Shown here: piece after piece, positions 27,601 through 57,600 of the stretch
Position numbering within the stretch: position 1 is the first letter of the stretch
Layout of the letters: each line of letters starts with the position of its first letter
From: Ranitomeya imitator
Taxonomy: Eukaryota
Direction: 5' to 3'
Assembly: GCF_032444005.1 (NCBI RefSeq)
Contig: NC_091283.1
Location: 626,944,001-627,008,000 of the forward strand
DNA: 64,000 nucleotides
The notes under the pieces: generated by a model
The model's input: the letters and a program-made list of their open reading frames with translations, nothing else
What the model was told of the DNA's origin: nothing
Databases searched by the model: none
Translations under genes and position numbers: made by a program

Positions 27601-30600
27601 CAGTTCTGCAAAGCAACAGTGCTAACCACTGAGCCACCGTGCTGCCCTCTGTCTAACCAAACACAATGGATCAGCTTCACTGATCATCAGAAGCAGATAA
27701 CAGAACATTATGTGCATGGGTTTTTAACCTCAATGAGTGGTCAAATAGACAAATGTCCCTAAATTCCAACTACGGTATAAAGTAATGTATATCACAAAAG
27801 TAATGTATCTTTTATGATTAGTTGGTGATATAACATATGCAGAACTCCAGGTTACTTTTAATGATAGGGGTACGGATAATGTATTGACAGTCCACATATG
27901 AAGATTAAACTTCAAATACAACTGCAATAATACAAGCTAATACGGAGGATGTTCATTTCTGTCGGATTATGTTATTGGGTGATTGATGTCAGTAACTTAG
28001 GTTGTATAATGGGAAATTACTTTAATAGGTAATGTGATCTGAGCTATGTCAGAGTGATTCAGTAAACACTGATGGTTGATGCTGAAGCTCCATGATGATG
28101 GAAAATGTACATGGTGATTTTTTTCCTTCATTTTTGAGGAAAGGGTGCATTTTGTTATCGATAATAGATCTGTTATTCTTAATTTACAGGAAAAATTTGC
28201 CAAGACCTATGAAAGCTTTAAGATCATGTACACTGTAGGGTATTCTATGTCGGTGGGGTCCCTCATACTGGCACTTGCTATTCTTGTGGGATTCAGGTAC
28301 GTTGATGTTAAGATGGAAACTATTGCCCGCTCCTAACCTATTTGTTTGAAAATTATATACAAAACCAATTATATCCCCAATCTCCTGTCATCTGTGGGGT
28401 TTTCCCTAAATATGGCCTTAATACCTGGTTAATTTAGGTGGATTTTTGCCAATTTTGACAGTCGAGTTTACAGACTGACCAATGGTCCTTTAACATCTCT
28501 CAGTGGAAACAAGCATCTGACAGGATATATGTCAGCACTATTGAAATAACATGCATATTGCATTAATCTGAACAGGCATATAGAGAAGTCTGGACTAATA
28601 GCCAGAACTTGTGCATGTGCATGAGCAATTTAAGGGTATGTGCACACGTCCGGATTTTTAGCGTTTTTTTTTGCGGAATTTCGCTATTAAAACGCTATAA
28701 TTCCGCATCAAAAAAGCTAAAAATATGCATCCTATCATTTAGAATGCATTCCGGATTTTTTGTTCATATGGATGCGTTTTTTTCCGCAAAAAAAACGCAT
28801 TCCGCAAAAAAAATAGACATGCTCATTCTTTTTTTTTGCGGATTTATAAGCCAAAATGACTTTCAGGAAAAAAAAAAAAAAGGAAAATTCCGCAAAAAAT
28901 CCGCGCAAAAACCGCGAAAAATCCGTGCGGAAAAAAACGCGATTTTCTGCCAGAATTCTCCGGATTTTGTCAGGAAAATAACCTGACGTGTGCACATACC
29001 CTCAAGGAGGCCAGTGACCATAGACATGAGATATTTATTGGTAAATCCAATCCGTTTGGGTGGGATCTGCAAGCAGTTTATTGTTGTTACGCAACCATAG
29101 ATACTACCTTGTTAGAGCTGCCAACAGGTATCTAATATACAATGGGTAAAAATAAGTATTTGATACACTGACGATTTTGCAAGTTTTGCCACCTACAAAG
29201 AATAGAAAGATCTGTAATTTTTATCGTGGGTACACCTCAACTGTGAAAGGCAGAATCTAAATATAAAAAACAGAAAATCACATTGTATGAATTTTACATA
29301 GTTAATTTGCATTTTATTGCATGAAATAAGTATTTGATACAATAGAAAAACAGAACTTAATATTTGGTACAGAAACCTTTGTTTGCAGTTACAGAGGTCA
29401 GACGTTTCCTGTAGTTCTTGACCAATTTTGCACGCATTGCAGCAGAGATTTTAGCCCAGTCCTCCATACAGATCTTCTCCAGATCTTTCAGGCTTTGTGG
29501 CTGTCGCTGGGCAACAAAAGTTTTCTATTGGGTTCAATACTGGAGACTACAGTAGCTAAGCCACACAATGACCTTGAAATTCTTCTTATGGAGAGACCCT
29601 TAGTTGCTCTGGCTGTGTTTTCCGGGTCATTGTCATGCTGGAAGCCCTAGTCACGATCCATTTTCAGTCCTTTTACTGGGAGAAGGAGGTTGTTGGCCAA
29701 AATCTTGCGACACATGACCCCATCCATACTTCTTTCAATACAGTGCAGTCGTCCTGTCCCCTTTGTAGATAAGCACCCCCAAAGTACCATGTTTCACGGT
29801 TTGGATGGTGTTATTGGGGGTTGCACTCATTCTTCTTCTTCCTGCAAACACAGTGAGTGTTTTATATTGAAGTTATATTGTGGTCTCATGATCTCATCTA
29901 ACCATATGACCTTCTCCCATGCCTCCTCTGGATCGTCCAAATAGTCATTGGTGAACTTCAAATGGACCTGGACATGTGCTGGCGTGAGCAGAGTGACCTT
30001 GCCTTCTCTGCAGGATATTAATCCAGGACAGCCTAGTGTGTTACTAAAGGCAATGTTTGAGACTGTGGTCCAAGCTCTCTTCATCTCAATGACCAGGTCA
30101 TCCCATGTAGTTCTGGGTTGATTTCTGACCTTTATTAGAACTATCCTTACCCTGTGAGGCTAAATCTTGCATGGATCCCAAGGCTGAGAAAAATTGACAG
30201 TCATCTTGTGTTTCTTCCATTTTCTAATAAATGTAGGCCCCTTGAAAAATAGTGAGGAAAGAATGGTTGTAGATGACGAGGAAAAAGCTAACATATTAAA
30301 CACCTTCTTCTCCACGGTATTCACGGTGGAAAATAAAATGCTAGGTGAAATCCCAAGAAACAATGAAAACCCTATATTAAGGGTCACCAATCTAACCCAA
30401 GAAGAGGTGCGAAACCGGCTAAATAAGATTAAAATAGATAAATCTCCGGGTCCGGATGGCATACACCCACGAGTACTAAGAGAACTAAGTAATGTAATAG
30501 ATAAACCATTATTTCTTATTTTTAGGGACTCTATAGCGACAGGGTCTGTTCCGCAGGATTGGCGCATAGCAAATGTGGTGCCAATATTCAAAAAGGGCTC

Positions 30601-33600
30601 TAAAAGTGAACCTGGAAATTATAGGCCAGTAAGTCTAACCTCTATTGTTGGTAAAATATTTGAAGGGTTTCTGAGGGATGTTATTCTGGATTATCTCAAT
30701 GAGAATAGCTGTTTAACTCCATATCAGCATGGGTTTATGAGAAATCGCTCCTGTCAAACCAATCTAATCAGTTTTTATGAAGAGGTAAACTATAGGCTGG
30801 ACCACGGTGAGTCATTGGACGTGGTATATCTCGATTTTTCCAAAGCGTTTGATACCGTGCCGCACAAGAGGTTGGTACACAAAATGAGAATGCTTGGTCT
30901 GGGGGAAAATGTGTGTAAATGGGTTAGTAACTGGCTTAGTGATAGAAAGCAGAGGGTGGTTATAAATGGTATAGTCTCTAACTGGGTCGCTGTGACCAGT
31001 GGGGTACCGCAGGGGTCAGTATTGGGACCTGTTCTCTTCAACATATTCATTAATGATCTGGTAGAAGGTTTACACAGTAAAATATCGATATTTGCAGATG
31101 ATACAAAACTATGTAAAGCAGTTAATACAAGAGAAGATAGTATTCTGCTACAGATGGATCTGGATAAGTTGGAAACTTGGGCTGAAAGGTGGCAGATGAG
31201 GTTTAACAATGATAAATGTAAGGTTATACACATGGGAAGAAGGAATCAATATCACCATTACACACTGAACGGGAAACCACTGGGTAAATCTGACAGGGAG
31301 AAGGACTTGGGGATCCTAGTTAATGATAAACTTACCTGGAGCAGCCAGTGCCAGGCAGCAGCTGCCAAGGCAAACAGGATCATGGGGTGCATTAAAAGAG
31401 GTCTGGATACACATGATGAGAGCATTATACTGCCTCTGTACAAATCCCTAGTTAGACCGCACATGGAGTACTGTGTCCAGTTTTGGGCACCGGTGCTCAG
31501 GAAGGATATAATGGAACTAGAGAGAGTACAAAGGAGGGCAACAAAATTAATAAAGGGGATGGGAGAACTACAATACCCAGATAGATTAGCGAAATTAGGA
31601 TTATTTAGTCTAGAAAAAAGACGACTGAGGGGCGATCTAATAACCATGTATAAGTATATAAGGGGACAATACAAATATCTCGCTGAGGATCTGTTTATAC
31701 CAAGGAAGGTGACGGGCACAAGGGGGCATTCTTTGCGTCTGGAGGAGAGAAGGTTTTTCCACCAACATAGAAGAGGATTCTTTACTGTTAGGGCAGTGAG
31801 AATCTGGAATTGCTTGCCTGAGGAGGTGGTGATGGCGAACTCAGTCGAGGGGTTCAAGAGAGGCCTGGATGTCTTCCTGGAGCAGAACAATATTGTATCA
31901 TACAATTAGGTTCTGTAGAAGGACATAGATCTGGGGATTTATTATGATGGAATATAGGCTGAACTGGATGGACAAATGTCTTTTTTCGGCCTTACTAACT
32001 ATGTTACTATGTTACTATGTTGTCCCAACAGTTGTTGCCTTCTCACCAAGCTGCTTGTCTACTGTCCTGTAGCCCATCCCAGCATTGTGCAGGTCTACAA
32101 TTTTGTACTTGGTGTCCTTAGACAGTTCTTTGGAGTATGATTGATTGAGTGTGGGCTCAGGCATTTTTTTATATACGGTAGTTAACAAGTTCAAACAGGT
32201 GCAATTAATACAGGTAATGAGTGCAGAGTATGAGGGCTTGTTAAAGAAAAACTTACATGTCTGTGAGAGCCAGAATTCTTGCTGGTTGGTGGGTAATCAA
32301 ATACATATTTCATGCAATAAAATGTAATTTAATTATTTAAATATCATACAATGTGATTTTTTTTCACATTCTGTCTCTCACAGTTGAAGTGCTCCTACGA
32401 TAAAAATTACAGACCTCTACATTCTTTCTAGGTGGGAAAACCTGCAAAATCTGCAGTGTATCAAAGTCTTATTTTCCCCACTGTATATACAGTACCTGCC
32501 TAAAACCTGCTAAAATGGCCAAATAGATTTGAAAAAAAGCTATGGCAAAGGAAGAATAAGTGATATGATACAAATGCTCGATAAAAAAGAGATTTACATG
32601 GCTGATACAGCCATACAAAGATATTCATACATAAGCTCATACCTCCCATTACTACCCCCTCTTACCGCTCCCTATCTAATATGAACTACCACAATCCTTC
32701 CAACGTAAGACCCGTGCCCTTGACGCCCACCCCCCTGCTCCCTCTCTCTGGAGCATTCTGGAATGCCCGCTCAATCTTCAATAAGCTTCATGTGATTCAT
32801 GACCTTTTTCTCTCTTGCAATCTTGCCTTCCTCGGCCTCACAGAAACATGGAAACATGGCTGACACCCTTGGACACCGCCTTCCCGCTGCGCTCTGTTAC
32901 GGTGGCCTCCATTTCACCCACACTCCTGGCCCCGGCAACAGACACGATGGAGGAGTGGGTCTTCTTCTTTCTTCTAACTGCACCTTTAACCCAATCCCAC
33001 CTCTACCCACCCTTATTCTCCCCTCTTTTGAAGTCCATTCTGTCCACATACACTCTCCCTCCAACTTCCAAGTGGCCGTCATATACCGACCTCCGGGCCT
33101 GGCCACTGCCTTTATTGATCAATTCTCCACCTGGCTTCTTCACTTTCTTTCCACTGACATTCCCACTATCATCATGGGTGACTTCAACATCCACACTGAT
33201 ACCCTTCAGTCAACAGCCTGCAAACTCCTGTCCCTTACTTCATCCTTTGGACTTACTCAGTGGTCCTCCACAGCCACCCACACAGATGGAAATGCATTAG
33301 ACCTGGTCTTCACCCATCTCTGCTCTCTATCTAACTTCACCACCTCCCCTCTCCATCTATCCAACCACCATCTACTCACTTTTTCATCCTTGTCCACCTC
33401 ACCTGTCACCCATGTCAGCAACATGCACACCCCCGCAGAAACCTTGCATAATTAGACACCCACACGCTCTCTGACTCTACCACTGGCATCCATTTCCTCA
33501 CTCCATGACACAGATGGTGCCACTGCTTTCTACAATGCCACTCTGCCATCAGCTATTGACGCGGTCACCCCTCTCGTTCATGGCAGAGTGCGACGCATCA

Positions 33601-39600: not shown

Positions 39601-42600
39601 TAGTCACTACTGGTAATGGTGGGTGGAGAGGTCTACCAGCTTGGCTGGATTATCCAGCTGCCATCACATGGGTGATCACATGGATTGCCATCCCAGATCC
39701 TATCGTGAAAATAACCAAACCTAAATAAGAGTGCAGCAGATATATAGCAAAAAAAAATATATAGACAATCACAATAAAATCTCTGCGAGATTCTTGATGA
39801 GCTTCTTGTTTCTATACTGCGTGGACAGACTTCATGGTTCTGCAGTGTCCTTCACCACCACATTTTGGAGCATGAATATGGGCATCCATTCAGTATGAAT
39901 GAGGTTAAATATTTTGAATAAAACATAGCTTGACCAAGTAGCATAGGTTTTTTATGGCCTTCCCTTTATGCAAAGGTATACTGTCATGACTGGAAATGCT
40001 GCCATAAGGCTATGTTCCTACGATGAGTTTTTGGTCAGTTTTTAATGTTTCAGATTTTCTGCAGCATTTCTGCACTAATGAGGTAAATTAGGTAACGCAT
40101 TTTTTTCATTCGTGTTTTATTACATTTTTTACATGTGCTTTTATTATGTTTTTAATGCTGTGTTTTTTTGTCTCTTTTTGACATGTCAGGTTTTACATAA
40201 AGCTACTTTTTTATACTTCCTGGTATTTTGATTTGATAAAACTTTATTGATAGCGTCATGTGCAGGTTACACATGATTTCTACCTGTGGAATTTTAGCAT
40301 GTCCGCATCTAATGCAATTTTATGGGAAAAACCTGCAACATAAAACTCAGTATGTTGTGTGTTTAAAATACACACCGCAGGTGAGTTTACGCTGCATGAA
40401 AAAAATAACACAGTGGGCACAAGATGTCTATAAATCCCCTCCACTTTACTAGAACTGTAACAAACTGCGTTTTTGGCACAGCAAAAATTCCCAGTACAAA
40501 AACTCAGCAAAATCTAATCGTGGGAACTAAACCTAAGGCTGGTTTCACATTTGCGTTTAAATCCGCAGCGTTTAAAATGCATCCGCAAGTGGTGAAAAAA
40601 ACGCATGTAAACGCGTACAAACGCTGCGTTTTTTAGACTCATGTGTTGTCGCATGCGGTTAAAAAAATGCCGCGTTTGTACGCGTTTACATGTGTTTTTG
40701 CCTGCGTTTGCCTTTTTGGTACGCATGATGGGAAATTTCACAAGCTGGTTTTTGTTCATTCTGCTTCACAAAAATCGGAATAAAAAAAAGCAATCAAAAA
40801 TGTCACGTGCCCGAAAATGTTACCAATAAAAATGTCAACTCGTCCCACAAAAAACAAGACCTCACATGACTCTGTGGACCAAAATATGGAAATACTGTAG
40901 CTCTCAAAATGTGGTAACGCAAAAAATATTTTTTGGACTAAAAAGCTGTTATGGCTGGCAATCAGGCAACACAGCGTGCAGTAATCAGCGCACATACAGA
41001 GATCTGGCAATAACCAAAAACAATAGGACGAGCTCTGAGACGTGGAATCTCTGTAGACTGCAGTACCTGATCTATCCTCACACAACTATAAGCAGCAGTG
41101 GATTGCGCCTATCACTACCTATGCAACTCGGCACTGCCTGAGGAGCTGACTAGCCTGAAGATAGAAATACAAGCCTGACTTACCTCAGAGAAATACCCCA
41201 AAGGAATAGGCAGCCCCCCACATATAATGACTGTTAGCAAGATGAAAAGACAAACGTAGGAATGAAATAGATTCAGCAAAGTGAGGCCCGATATTCTAGA
41301 CAGAGCGAGGATAGCAAAGAGAACTATGCAGTCTACAAAAAACCCTAAAACGAAAACCACGCAAAGGGGCAAAAAGACCCACCGTGCCGAACTAACAGCA
41401 CGGCGGTGCACCCCTTTGCTTCTCAGAGCTTCCAGCAAAAGTTAATAGCAAGCTGGACAGAAAAAACAGAAAACAAACTAGAAGCACTTATCTAGCAGAG
41501 CAGCAGGCCCAAGGAAAGATGCAGTAGCTCAGATCCAACACTGGAACATTGACAAGGAGCAAGGAAGACAGACTCAGGTGGAGCTAAATAGCAAGGCAGC
41601 CAACGAGCTCACCAAAACACCTGAGGGAGGAAGCCCAGAGACTGCAATACCACTTGTGACCACAGAAGTGAACTCAGCCACAGAATTCACAACAGTACCC
41701 CCCCCTTGAGGAGGGGTCACCGAACCCTCACCAGAACCCCCAGGCCGACCAGGATGAGCCACATGACAGGCACGAACAAGATCTGGGGCATGGACATCAG
41801 AGGCAAAAACCCAGGAATTATCTTCCTGAGCATAACCCCTCCATTTGACCAGATACTGGAGTTTCCGTCTAGAGACACGAGAATCCAAAATCTTCTCCAC
41901 AATATACTCCAATTCCCCCTCCACCAAAACAGGGGCAGGAGGCTCCACAGATGGAACCATAGGTGCCACGTATCTCCTCAACAACGACCTATGGAATACA
42001 TTATGTATGGAAAAGGAGTCTGGGAGGGTCAGACGAAAAGACACCGGATTGAGAATCTCAGAAATCCTATACGGACCAATAAAACGAGGTTTAAATTTAG
42101 GAGAGGAAACCTTCATAGGAATATGACGAGAAGATAACCAAACCAGATCCCCAACACGAAGTCGGGGTCCCACACGGCGTCTGCGATTAGCGAAAAGCTG
42201 AGCCTTCTCCTGGGACAAGGTCAAATTGTCCACTACCTGAGTCCAGATCTGCTGCAACCTGTCCACCACAGAATCCACACCAGGACAGTCCGAAGACTCA
42301 ACCTGTCCTGAAGAGAAACGAGGATGGAACCCAGAATTGCAGAAAAATGGAGAGACCAAGGTAGCCGAGCTGGCCCGATTATTAAGGGCGAACTCAGCCA
42401 ACGGCAAAAATGACACCCAATCATCCTGGTCAGCGGAAACAAAACATCTCAGATATGTTTCCAAGGTCTGATTGGTTCGTTCGGTCTGGCCATTAGTCTG
42501 AGGATGGAAGGCCGAGGAGAAAGATAGGTCAATGCCCATCCTACCACAAAAGGCTCGCCAGAACCTCGAGACAAACTGGGAACCTCTGTCAGAAACAATA

Positions 42601-45600: not shown

Positions 45601-48600
45601 TTTCTGAAGCTCAGGAACTTAGTTCTGTCACCAAAAAACAAATCAGGAATCGGAATTCTTGGTTCTAGCATCGATTTCTGATCAATAGTATCTTGAATCT
45701 TTTGTACATTTACAACGAGATTATCCATTGAGGAGCACAGAGCCTGAATATCCATGTCCACAGCTGTGTCCTGAAGCACTCTAATGTCTAGGGGAAAAAA
45801 AAGACTGAAGACAGAGCTAAGAAAAAAAAATGATGTCAGGATTTCTTTTTTCCCTCTATTGGGAATCATTGGTGTGGCTCCTTGTACTGTTATGGCTGGC
45901 AATCAGGCAACACAGCGTGCAGTAATCAGCGCACATACAGAGATCTGGCAATAACCAAAAACAATAGGACGAGCTCTGAGACGTGGAATCTCTGTAGACT
46001 GCAGTACCTGATCTATCCTCACACAACTATAAGCAGCAGTGGATTGCGCCTATCACTACCTATGCAACTCGGCACTGCCTGAGGAGCTGACTAGCCTGAA
46101 GATAGAAATACAAGCCTGACTTACCTCAGAGAAATACCCCAAAGGAATAGGCAGCCCCCCACATATAATGACTGTTAGCAAGATGAAAAGACAAACGTAG
46201 GAATGAAATAGATTCAGCAAAGTGAGGCCCGATATTCTAGACAGAGCGAGGATAGCAAAGAGAACTATGCAGTCTAAAAAAAACCCTAAAACGAAAACCA
46301 CGCAAAGGGGCAAAAAGACCCACCGTGCCGAACTAACAGCACGGCGGTGCACCCCTTTGCTTCTCAGAGCTTCCAGCAAAAGTTAATAGCAAGCTGGACA
46401 GAAAAAACAGAAAACAAACTAGAAGCACTTATCTAGCAGAGCAGCAGGCCCAAGGAAAGATGCAGTAGCTCAGATCCAACACTGGAACATTGACAAGGAG
46501 CAAGGAAGACAGACTCAGGTGGAGCTAAATAGCAAGGCAGCCAACGAGCTCACCAAAACACCTGAGGGAGGAAGCCCAGAGACTGCAATACCACTTGTGA
46601 CCACAGAAGTGAACTCAGCCACAGAATTCACAACAAAAAGCGTCTTTCAGTGTGTGACAGCTGCCAATCATAAAAATCCACTAGAAAACCGCTTATAAAT
46701 AGAAATCAAACCCCCTTCATCAACTCCTTAGTAAGGGAAAAATTAAAAAAATGTATTTATTTCCATTTTCCCNNNNNNNNNNNNNNNNNNNNNNNNNNNN
46801 NNNNNNNNNNNNNNNNNNNNNNNNNNNNNNNNNNNNNNNNNNNNNNNNNNNNNNNNNNNNNNNNNNNNNNNNNNNNNNNNNNNNNNNNNNNNNNNNNNNN
46901 NNNNNNNNNNNNNNNNNNNNNNNNNNNNNTTTGGATCCCTTTATCACCTTGATGGTGGCTTAGGGTTAGGGCTAGGGTTAGGGCTAGGGTTAGGGTTAGG
47001 GCTAGGGTTAGGGTTTGGATCCCTTTATCACCTTAATGGTGGCTTAGGGTTAGGGCTAGGGTTAGGGTTAAGGTTTGGATCCCTTTATCACCTTGATGGT
47101 GGGGGGTGGCTTATCAGTGTCTAAACTTGTTTTTCTCTATTGAAACGCATACGTTCAAAACGCAACCAAACGCATGTGCTTAAAAACGCATGCGTTTACA
47201 TAGACAGCAATGCTTTTTTTTACGCAAACCGTGCGCAATTGAATGCATGCGTTTCCTGGCGGCAAATAGACGCCTCTAAAAATACTACATGTTGCATTTC
47301 TGCTCCAAGCCGCAAGCGACAAAAAGACGCATGCGTCGTCAAACGCGGCCAAACGCGAACAAAAAGAAACGCATGCATTTTTAATGTTAAATATAGGAAA
47401 ACACGACGCGTTTGTTTATATGCGGTAAAAATGCAGCGGCAAAAAACGCAAATGTGAAACCAGCCTAAGGCAACATGATATTGCATGATGTGCTTTTAAG
47501 ATTTTTTTTTAACTAAAATGCATCTCTATTCTATTGCTAATGTTTCCTATGGAGTCCGCAGTGCTGCGTGCTTGATTTTACGAATTTGCCGGCAATGCAT
47601 AATAATTAAAATGGCTGGACAAACTAATTAGAAAGAGTACACAAATCTTTGGCTTTGAATTCTTCTATTTCAATAATATAATTGTTGTGAACTTTAAGAA
47701 ATTCACCCTGAACTTGACCTATAATCCATCTGTGCCCCAGAAGGGGATCACACAAGCAGCAATGCTCTGATACATATCCACTGTGTGTATCATTATACAG
47801 CCTAAATAACGGCTGCCACAAAGTTAGCTGCATTTTGCTGAGGGCTTCACAGATCAAACATCATTTTTGTTTTATGTCTAACGCTGTAAAAGTATAAAAA
47901 CAGAGACACCATGGGGTTGTCCTAGGACACAGAAATAGCCCTTCTGCCAGATTGGTACTTAGGCTTGTGTATGTGAGTTTGTCTTTATATCATATATACA
48001 GGTGCTTCTCACAAAATTAGAATATCATCAAAAAGTTTATTTGTTTCAGTTCTTCAATACAAAAAGTGAAACTCATATTCTATAGAGTCATTACAGACAG
48101 AGTGATCTATATCAAGCGTTTATTTCTGGTAATGTTGATGATTATGACAACCCAAAAGTAATTTTCTCAGTGAATTAGAATAATTAACAAAAACACCTGC
48201 AAAGGCTTCCTAAGCATTTAAAAAGGTCCCTTAGTCTGTTTTAGTAGGCTCCACAATCATGGGGAAGACTGACGACTTGACAGATGTCCAGAAGGCAATC
48301 ATTGACACACTCCACAAGGAAAGTATATTTTGATTTCATTTGGAAATCAAGGTCCCAGAATCTTGAGGAAGAGAGGAGAGATAGACAATCCAAGCTGCTT
48401 GAGGTCTAGTGTGAAGTTTCCACAATCAGTGGTTTAGGGAGTCATGTCATCACTAGCCCACCCCAGAAACACCATAAAAATAACTTGATTTAACGAAATT
48501 AAAAATAAATCCTTTCTCAGTCCTTTGGATTTATATTACTTATTTAGTCTCATTGTGTTATACAGGTGCTCCTCTCTTATTCATCATTCCTTGGGTGGCT

Positions 48601-54600: not shown

Positions 54601-57600
54601 TCTTTTATTAGAATTCTCAAAGCTTTTTGGAGCCAAGTGAAATCATTAATAATTGGCCTGTGATCAGTATGGAAGGAATGACCATTGGATGATTAAGAAA
54701 AATCTTGGAGACAGATTCAGTGCTATTAATGACTACTAATGCATTCTGCTTGACTCTTGTAGAGCGGCTCTTAATCATGATTTTCATGTTCCGGTATAGG
54801 TGTTGGACCACAAATCACAACATGGCATTCTGGTGGATTCTACGGTCTCCTGTGTTCCTTGCTATACTGGTAATTCATGGTAGAAATGATACCCCATACG
54901 ATTGCCATATTACAAAAGAATGTGCAGCTTACTTTTTTAGGGGTTAAAAAAAGGAGCGTATATTACTGAAATGGTGCCCTTTCTGGGACTTATAAAGGAA
55001 AGGCTAGTAAAGAGCTATGAATGAATGCCAGACGGTGCAGCAGAAGTAGCTACTTTATCTGAGTCTTTGAGGCATGAGAAATTGTGTCTACTGAGCTTAC
55101 AGGTTTCATTGATGTATCATGCATGCTATATTTGGCTGACCGTGCATGTGTTTTCATTTGGCAGGGGACAGTTGGTAGGCCTCCATACAAATAAGATACA
55201 TGGACACTTTAAAAAGATCCACATTTGGAGACATGGCTGAGTTTTTTCTCACCTGTAGCACAGATTCATCTCACTGTCCTAGTCTTATTTCTTAGCTGCC
55301 GTGCTAGCACCCATCTATGACCAGCATGGTAACCCAGTGACCTATTAACCGTGACCCAGAGATAAAATGCTCAAACACTGGGATGTAAGCTGGCGCAGTT
55401 CCAAGTCATCTAGTAGTCACCACTACTCCTATTATTACCGTAGCAGTAGTCGATTTACGTACAGCGATCTTGTGATTCAGAAAATGTAAGTGATGATGCC
55501 ATTTTTTTCCACATACAGTTAATTTCTAATTATAACTGACAAGTGCAATATTGTTTAGAAACAAAAAAAAACACATTGGAAATTAAATGGTTATTCCTGC
55601 AATATTAATCATCATTCAATGGCTTAAATTCCCAACATAAATACAGTTATCAAATGCAATCAATTTCCAAAAGTGCGCGTTTCTCATCGACTGAAAATCT
55701 GCATTTTCGATGGTTTGCTTCCTGGTTTCCCATAGGTATGTCCTGTTCTATTTTCATGACAAGTCGCACATGCTCAGCATATTCCTGGGTTATCCTCATC
55801 TTACTTTCCAGTGACACCGCTAATTGTACCGTCCTCTAAGCACAGGGTGGCCATGGGCACTATGTGCCGCCTGTTGTCAAAGAAGGAAAAAGATGTCCTT
55901 CTCTACATCTGTGCCATTCCGCTATGTAATAGAAGAAGCAGAGTAGGTGTCAAAACTCAGTTGCCAGGTGTCCCGGGACCAGGGACGCCTTCCCTGTCCC
56001 TAATGCTAGGGGCGCCCTAGCTCACCCTGTTCTCCGGATTACTTCTGATGGTGAAGATGCCGAGGCCACGTACCTTGCCTTAGCTCCTGAATCCGCCCTC
56101 AGTCAGAGGGGAGTAGTAGTGTACCATATTGCACAAACCAGACTTAACAAGGTAATATGAACAGGGGTAATGAAAAATTCCAAACATAGAAATATACTCA
56201 CACATATAACAGACGAATGCACCGGGGAGTGGAGGATGGGGTTAAACTCAAAGTATGAGAAGGGAATTATCACACACCCAAAACCTAGCAACAGTCACAG
56301 ATAAATAACCGAACATTTACTCCTTAAATAACCAACAACAACCTCCAGCCATGCAGCAAAAGCCACTCTGACAATTAGTGCTAGCCAGGGGCCAGACTAT
56401 ATAGGAGATGGGAGTGGCTAATAGTGCACAGCTGAGAGTCTAAAGGCTCCAGGAGCTCTCAACATAGCAGATTAACCCCTGCACTGCCAATACAAAGTTA
56501 CACTGTTTAAAATAAAGGTGAAGTGCTTCTCATCAGTGCAGGAGTAGGAGAAATCAGACGCTGCATTCTTCTGGCTCCCCTCTATCGCAGTAAACCCGTG
56601 ACAGCTGGACTACTAATTACTAAACCAAAGGTTTTTCTCATTAAAAGCATGAACAATTCTGTCCATATTTGTTATAATGGAGACCTCCTACCTATAATTA
56701 CAAAGTACAACTGGGCCTTTATCTACACTGTCAAACAGATAAACTGTCAGCACACAGTTTTAATTTTTTAACACTAGAAATCCCAGAGAGGGGTCTGTTG
56801 TGAATTCTGTTGTCGAACTCCCTCCTGTGGTTGTGAGTGGTACTTCGGCGAGTTCTGTCTATGGGCTCCCTCTGGTGGCTGTGAGTGAAGCTGCTGCTTC
56901 TGAGGTTCCTTACACAGGTGACGTGGGTTGTCCTTCGGTTGGCTTCTCTATTTAACTCCTCTCAGATCGTTACTCCATGCCAGCTGTCAATGTTTTTGCA
57001 TTTGTTCAGTTTGCTCCTGGATCTCTCTGGTGACCTGCCTTCTCCTGCAGAAGCTAAGTTCCTGATAGTCATTATTTGTTCACTATTTTCTTGTCCAGCT
57101 GGTTTTCATGATTTTGTCTTGCTAGCTGGAAGCTCTGGGATGCAGAGTGGCCCCTCCACACCGTGAGTCAGTGCGGAGGTCTTTTTTGCACACTCTGCGT
57201 GGTCTTTTGTAGGTTTTTGTGCTGATCGCAAAGTTACCTTTCATATCCTCTGTCTATTTAGTAAGTCTGGCCTCCCTTTGCTGAAACCTGTTTCATTTCT
57301 GCGTTTGTGACTTTCATCTTTACTCACAGTCAATATATGTGGGGGGCTTCATTTACCTTTGGGGAATTTATCTGAGGCAAGGTAGGCTTTATTTTCTATC
57401 TCTAGGGCTAGATAGTTCTTAGGCTGTGACGAGGCGCCTAGGTCTGGTCAGGAGCGCTCCACGGCTATTTCTAGTGTGTGTGATAGGATTAGGGCTTGCG
57501 GTCAGCAGAGCTCCCACATCCCAGAGCTCGTCCTGTATGAGGTTTAACTATCAGGTCATTCCAGGTGCTCCTAACCACCAGGTCATAACAGGGGTCATTT

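Follow-up and report, generated by a model that had tools for sequence, protein, structure and literature searches.

Self-priming of reverse transcription in vertebrate Tf1/sushi elements is said to have been proposed by Butler et al. in 2001, and the earlier note on this DNA, which mentioned such a proposal, was referring to an idea that is already in print. In the passages of the literature available to us, self-priming is described as experimentally proven for Tf1 in fission yeast, where the primer is freed by RT/RNase H cleavage, and as a common feature of Tf1/sushi elements (10.1101/2022.12.06.519325; PMC6317226; PMC4600332; PMC7175516; with further passages in PMC3185545, PMC3035444, PMC5341516, PMC6278860, PMC4131045, PMC3601003, PMC3853366 and PMC11042837). 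Tf1 and Tf2 of S. pombe, together with Tj1, Tosmo and Tcry1, are, like the frog element described here, chromoviruses with a PBS complementary to the 5' end of their RNA, an end that is a predicted one in the frog element. As far as these passages describe them, Tf1 and Tf2 have a single gag-pol frame, as does the frog element, whereas Tf1/sushi members outside fission yeast mostly have a -1 gag/pol frameshift in place of the one open frame found here. The frog Gag contains a CCHC knuckle, which the fission-yeast elements are described as lacking, and the primer is 9 nt long in the frog element in contrast to 11 nt in Tf1 (PMC7175516). With regard to amphibians, parts of the published record report that no chromodomain gypsies are more abundant in Xenopus than the Amn-san elements (PMC4131045) and that young Gypsy elements with germline expression make up about 1 Gb in Oophaga pumilio (PMC6278860); the portion of the latter text at hand, which deals with the dendrobatid Gypsy expansion, contains neither the word "sushi" nor the word "priming". 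Self-priming is thus known for Tf1 and proposed for vertebrates, and the family described here has unusually good genomic footprints of it.

The window, that is, the whole stretch of 64,000 nucleotides from Ranitomeya imitator that was analysed, contains on its minus strand a complete Ty3/gypsy chromovirus with TG...CA LTRs, a target site duplication (TSD), a polypurine tract and the domain order PR-RT-RH-IN. Sequence comparison shows that the PBS of this element complements and covaries with a 9-mer of its own LTR, and we consider it very probable that this 9-mer forms the capped 5' end of the transcript and primes reverse transcription. The 5' LTR (45888..46635, TGTTG...AACA) and the 3' LTR (40947..41694) are both 748 bp long and differ only at position 46277, a single difference that the earlier note had counted by eye. 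They are bordered by 6-bp TSD copies, GCTTTT at 46636..46641 and the second copy at 40941..40946. The usual TSD of chromoviruses is 4-5 bp; a 5-bp TSD with an LTR ending in G was dropped on the evidence of the relatives. A single gag-PR-RT-RH-IN-chromodomain frame of 1431 codons, with a second ATG at 45755, runs from 45869 to 41574 and enters the 3' LTR by about 40 codons; it is indeed free of stops, as had been claimed. The polypurine tract (41698..41707) is followed by TAC and the 3' LTR, and its G run (41698-41705) differs between copies, being mostly 7 or 8, so that the frame stops at the LTR start in some copies and about 40 codons inside the LTR in others. Gag, RT, RNase H, integrase, SH3 and chromo domains were found in the frame, the chromodomain lying after the integrase (PF00385, E 7e-12, residues 1322-1365), as were CCHC, protease, YLDD, RNase H, integrase and chromo motifs, and the best relative of solved structure is Ty3 Gag-Pol.

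The RT phylogeny assigns the element to the Tf1/sushi-type chromoviruses. Its RT-RNase H falls in a starred clade (support 100/98) of 13 frog and fish rows at 56-83% identity, and fungal rows come next outside it (94/87, not starred), in a tree of 25 rows from 120 listed matches that includes no named reference element and in which some labels are author-read. The nearest named proteins are from Ranitomeya, many of them at 93-99%. In the host genome of 5.96 Gb, the leader motif downstream of the PBS has 43,528 matches and a loose LTR-PBS pattern has 34,126. The description of the element as intact and very young holds with regard to its one LTR mismatch and its open frame, but not as a special status, given that the window's own LTR-PBS junction has 7,186 near-identical matches genome-wide, all in the same subfamily. 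Among 40 relatives picked for an identical Gag, 34 could be parsed; an exact 6-bp TSD is present in 32 of the 34, LTR substitutions number zero in 17, and a frame of at least 1355 aa is kept in 24, where it is a single frame as in the window copy. The latter has five private residues, within the range of 0-8 seen among 25 long-frame copies. It is a young and complete copy, yet an ordinary one within its family, and it may be active at present. An older LTR of the same family, 73% alike, lies on the plus strand at 57125-57534.

The PBS, ACAAGGAGC (45885-45877), is the exact complement of GCTCCTTGT (46501-46493), which is found in both LTRs, about 615 nt away from the PBS in the 5' copy. A TATA-like box, TATTTA (46526..46531; TACTTA in some subfamilies), which would be the promoter, begins 30 nt before the 9-mer, and the coordinates given for both in the earlier note proved accurate. 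The complement is exactly 9 nt long and the LTR has no longer one. No TGG occurs within the 27 bases that follow the window LTR, again as had been observed, and PBSs that begin with TGG at the LTR end are absent across the family types. Since a 9-nt complement to a site starting 0-4 bases past the LTR arose in 4.9% of 20,000 Markov-shuffled LTRs, the match in a single copy is only suggestive and family data were needed, which remove the doubt.

The family data came from 30 loci collected through the leader motif without use of the PBS, at which the nine bases at TATA+30 were read blind. The TATA anchor was present in 28 of the 30, two of which had no PBS, and at 24 of the 26 testable loci, representing five PBS types, the 9-mer matched its own PBS perfectly; the remaining two showed a match at +28 after a 2-nt deletion and a single mismatch. 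When primer and PBS partners were swapped between loci, only 104 of 650 combinations matched (16%). In an alignment of 21 leaders that were hand-picked to span the PBS types, and whose cells do not count as independent events, pairing within the 9-bp helix reaches 99.5% of cells and both sides change at five of the nine pairs, with a covariation score of 0.393 vs 0.130 for shuffled and at most 0.107 for slid partners. Compensatory change across copies, which the earlier note had named as a check, is therefore present. The TATA-like box is kept in 21/21 of these leaders and stands 30 nt from the 9-mer in nearly all.

Folding of the leader, another check named there, agrees with this pairing. 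In the window leader, RNA bases 1-9 (46493..46501) lie on the PBS in both the best and the centroid structures, with a pairing probability of 0.98. The mean probability of the primer-PBS helix was 0.95-1.00 in 18 of 22 folded leaders and 0.76-0.79 in two, and the helix was given no weight in the other two folds (L041 and L059). The "pretzel" of Tf1 consists of three helices, of which two have support in the frog element, where they are known from sequence alone. The central helix is supported; the 5' flanking helix, between UGUU (46486..46489) and the LTR-terminal AACA (45891-45888), is predicted yet nearly invariant, so that its 4 bp, although paired in 97.6% of cells of the 21 leaders, are weak evidence; and the 3' flanking helix was not predicted in the leader folds, which have a local hairpin after the PBS instead.

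A second footprint, which like the third one below is absent from the earlier note, lies directly behind the PBS. The six bases at 45871..45876 consist of a fixed C (45876) followed by hypervariable bases, and across 69 copies with a mean pairwise distance of 0.7% this scar has 25 haplotypes of 5-7 nt, whereas elsewhere in the same copies the median comparison interval has 1 haplotype, the 95th percentile 4 and the next separate peak 8 (two of 70 fetched copies, with rearranged LTRs, were excluded). The primer and the PBS each differ in only one or two copies of this sample. In 67 of 68 copies a C directly follows the PBS, and it persists next to three bases that are in constant flux. When the scar bases were left out in building a tree of 34 copies, the scar required 15 changes on it, vs a mean of 0.46 and a maximum of 6 in 822 other intervals. 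One clade of 19 copies has an identical scar in 15, which indicates that the scar is not rewritten in every cycle. In the literature searched, we found no description of the post-PBS scar, of the PBS + C junctions presented below or of this frog family; primary Tf1 work, which was outside that search, may describe a cap-derived C.

The third footprint consists of LTR-LTR junctions in which cDNA ends appear to have been trapped. Six same-family junctions read CA-GT-[9-nt PBS]-C-(T)AC-TG (L196, L198, L199, L200, L207 and L216), TAC being the trinucleotide that precedes the 3' LTR. Four of these are bordered by exact 6-bp TSDs and one by a TSD with a mismatch, and in one the far end was not reached. 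The join is ambiguous by one base (C|AC or CA|C) in two of the six, and in the four unambiguous ones C is the last base before the left end. These six were the only ones counted as cDNA-end junctions among 30 LTR-LTR matches searched; 14 others were insertions of one subfamily into another, two were microhomology joins between PBS and polypurine tract, six were unrelated or unclear, and L201 and L209 resemble the PBS + C junctions but are ambiguous and were not counted. Primer-less junctions were also found, reading CA-GT|TAC-TG after an LTR preceded by a polypurine tract (L231) and CA-GT|AC-TG (L029). Junctions with and without a primer copy parallel the cDNA of Tf1, about half of which is reported, in the part of the source available, to keep the PBS copy, with untemplated bases at most of the cDNA ends (PMC11042837). 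A looser junction pattern gave 114 mostly unrelated matches, and a pattern with zero bases between the PBS and the next ATG, which was poorly aimed, gave none.

Several further arrangements were seen around these sites. L196 and L207 are mini-elements in which nothing but PBS + C + (T)AC separates two LTRs, the whole being bordered by a TSD. Other-subfamily insertions lie exactly at the PBS end in L205, L208, L210, L211, L214, L220, L222 and L223 (near base 1500), with 6-bp TSDs at two of the eight, and these may reflect the G...C target preference seen in relatives or a real hotspot. At L202/L203 (G000:C1, about 1152249000), at least three LTRs in tandem are joined via CAAGG, which is common to the PBS and the polypurine tract, and L212 has near base 1500 the LTR-LTR junction GTACCCCCCC, an inverted piece of the end of the polypurine tract. 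L107 and L108 (about 1485-1500) have a clean deletion that removes the PBS from between LTR end and scar. An A replaces the C at the last PBS position in L134, L198, L201, L209 and the second element in L008, with the next C kept; this recurrent A suggests that copying of the first RNA base may be error-prone.

Based on these footprints, we propose a route in which the RNA would start at G46501, 30 nt past the TATA-like box, and its bases 1-9 would fold onto the PBS, aided by the short UGUU/AACA helix. RT/RNase H would then cut after base 9, as in Tf1, and minus-strand DNA would begin at the LTR-adjoining GT (45886..45887), the spacer between LTR end and PBS whose predicted role as first minus-strand bases draws on the sequence and on the LTR-LTR junctions. 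Plus-strand strong-stop DNA would copy the attached primer and add a C opposite the cap as well as 0-3 untemplated bases, and its end would transfer by means of the 9-bp homology, with extension proceeding from a tail that is mismatched. Such a transfer would rewrite the PBS from the primer and scramble the bases directly behind it. On the simplest reading of the scar, plus-strand strong-stop DNA indeed terminates in the PBS, the C and a few free nucleotides, and synthesis resumes from this mismatched tail. If the PBS is rewritten from the primer, the pair would drift together without the need for two separate mutations.

In agreement with this route, excerpts of published work report that reverse transcriptases copy the cap as C (PMC3853366) and that the Tf1 RT adds untemplated bases (PMC3185545; PMC11042837), and we regard it as probable that the fixed C derives from copying of the cap. 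It is also possible, although we find it the more doubtful reading, that self-priming holds and the C is either a selected internal base or the preferred untemplated base of the RT. The C is at the same place in all normal elements and could thus have been inherited at the junctions, and in 6 of 21 leaders the genomic base before the primer is a G, so that the C could be templated there. However, the base before the primer is T in 15/21 leaders and the base after the PBS is C in 21/21, so that the C is mostly not the complement of the pre-primer base. It persists while its three neighbours change, it follows even the A-ending PBS copies of L134, L198, L201 and L209, and it comes last before the left end wherever the junction is unambiguous. 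Taken as a whole, the reading of the locus as a fossil record of vertebrate self-priming, with a cap-derived fixed C, a PBS rewritten from the primer and a hotspot of untemplated bases behind it, is one that we favour slightly over its being wrong in some part.

Copies in which primer and PBS disagree bear on where the primer comes from. In the window's subfamily, PBS position 3 differs at only four junctions vs 7,186 unchanged; in L161 and L164 the LTR of the same copy shows exactly the compensating change, whereas in L162 and L163 both own LTRs are unchanged. Conversely, 165 LTRs have an altered partner base of PBS position 3 in the primer, and 13 of the first 30 are 5' LTRs, which match their PBS in 10 of 13 cases. 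In L187 and L189 both LTRs have changed but PBS position 3 has not, and one wobble and one mismatch are seen in L169; the mismatched copies also include L003, L134, L113 and L059. Half-way copies such as L187 and L189 would be expected on the Tf1 route, because new LTRs would copy the parent 3' R while the new PBS would copy the parent primer/PBS, and later point mutation or recombination of co-packaged RNAs could explain some of them. We consider it very unlikely that the element primes itself with something other than the capped 5' end, namely the 3' R copy of the same RNA or a cut in a longer or second RNA. The 9-mer's presence in both LTRs and a start position that is a prediction would permit this, and L162, L163 and the cross-subfamily mismatches L113 and L059 fit a primer acting in trans from a co-packaged RNA. 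Nevertheless, the complementarity ends at a G 30 nt from a conserved TATA-like box, the junctions go no further than PBS + C and in no case contain the complement of the U3 bases that lie upstream, and L187 and L189, with new LTRs and the old PBS position 3, are the first generation that the Tf1 route predicts.

That a host tRNA or tRNA fragment primes, with the LTR complement merely a structural clamp over the PBS, is highly improbable. In its favour, LTR elements are as a rule primed by tRNAs, a TGG stands four bases past the LTR in one subfamily (ACTGGAGGC), and the direct comparison with host tRNAs, internal fragments included, was a narrow one that covered tRNA-Lys(TTT) only. Against it, the family has at least nine PBS sequences, each matched in cis and single-copy changes included, and these would be reset if the host primer were fixed; five of the PBS positions are free to vary provided that the LTR follows; and a fixed length of 9 nt with a scar directly behind it is a poor fit to an 18-nt tRNA site. 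Tandem tRNA genes with a spacing of 1008 bp are found at G000:C4 (about 660780000-660840000), and the four loci checked are tRNA-Lys(TTT).

Self-priming by the capped RNA 5' end is thus the reading that we retain, and the leader is covered by assembled contigs of four presumed-RNA runs, which do not mark a start position. A donor-like site in U5 (46124, GT) and pyrimidine-rich acceptor-like sites (45817/45788) before the second ATG flank the PBS on the minus strand, and splicing between them would yield an mRNA lacking the PBS. The donor-like site is GC in 17 of 21 leaders, no splice joint around the PBS was found in the contigs of these four runs, and one of these contigs spans the PBS and the acceptor-like sites unspliced. 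Elsewhere in the window, 30263-32004, which has a 548-aa frame, and 1303-2090 are pieces 99% alike of a non-LTR RT (CR1/L2-like by our own reading), and telomere-like TTAGGG/CTAGGG repeats with a 30-bp unit (46930-47078) adjoin an N stretch (46773-46929).

In the passages available to us, self-priming in vertebrates has so far only been inferred, and this family offers natural mutants, half-way intermediates and trapped cDNA ends for its study. It also gives sharp predictions: a start at G46501, a 9-nt primer, and cDNA ends CA-GT-(PBS-C) and TAC-TG. If the proposed origin of the scar is true, the scar would be a general marker, legible from sequence only, of self-primers and start sites in any LTR family, as well as a natural barcode for replication rounds. 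A self-primed element would present no tRNA-binding site for control by tRNA fragments, and with its leader present in at least 43,000 copies in a genome of 6 Gb, this tRNA-independent element seems to have contributed greatly to building the genome of its host.
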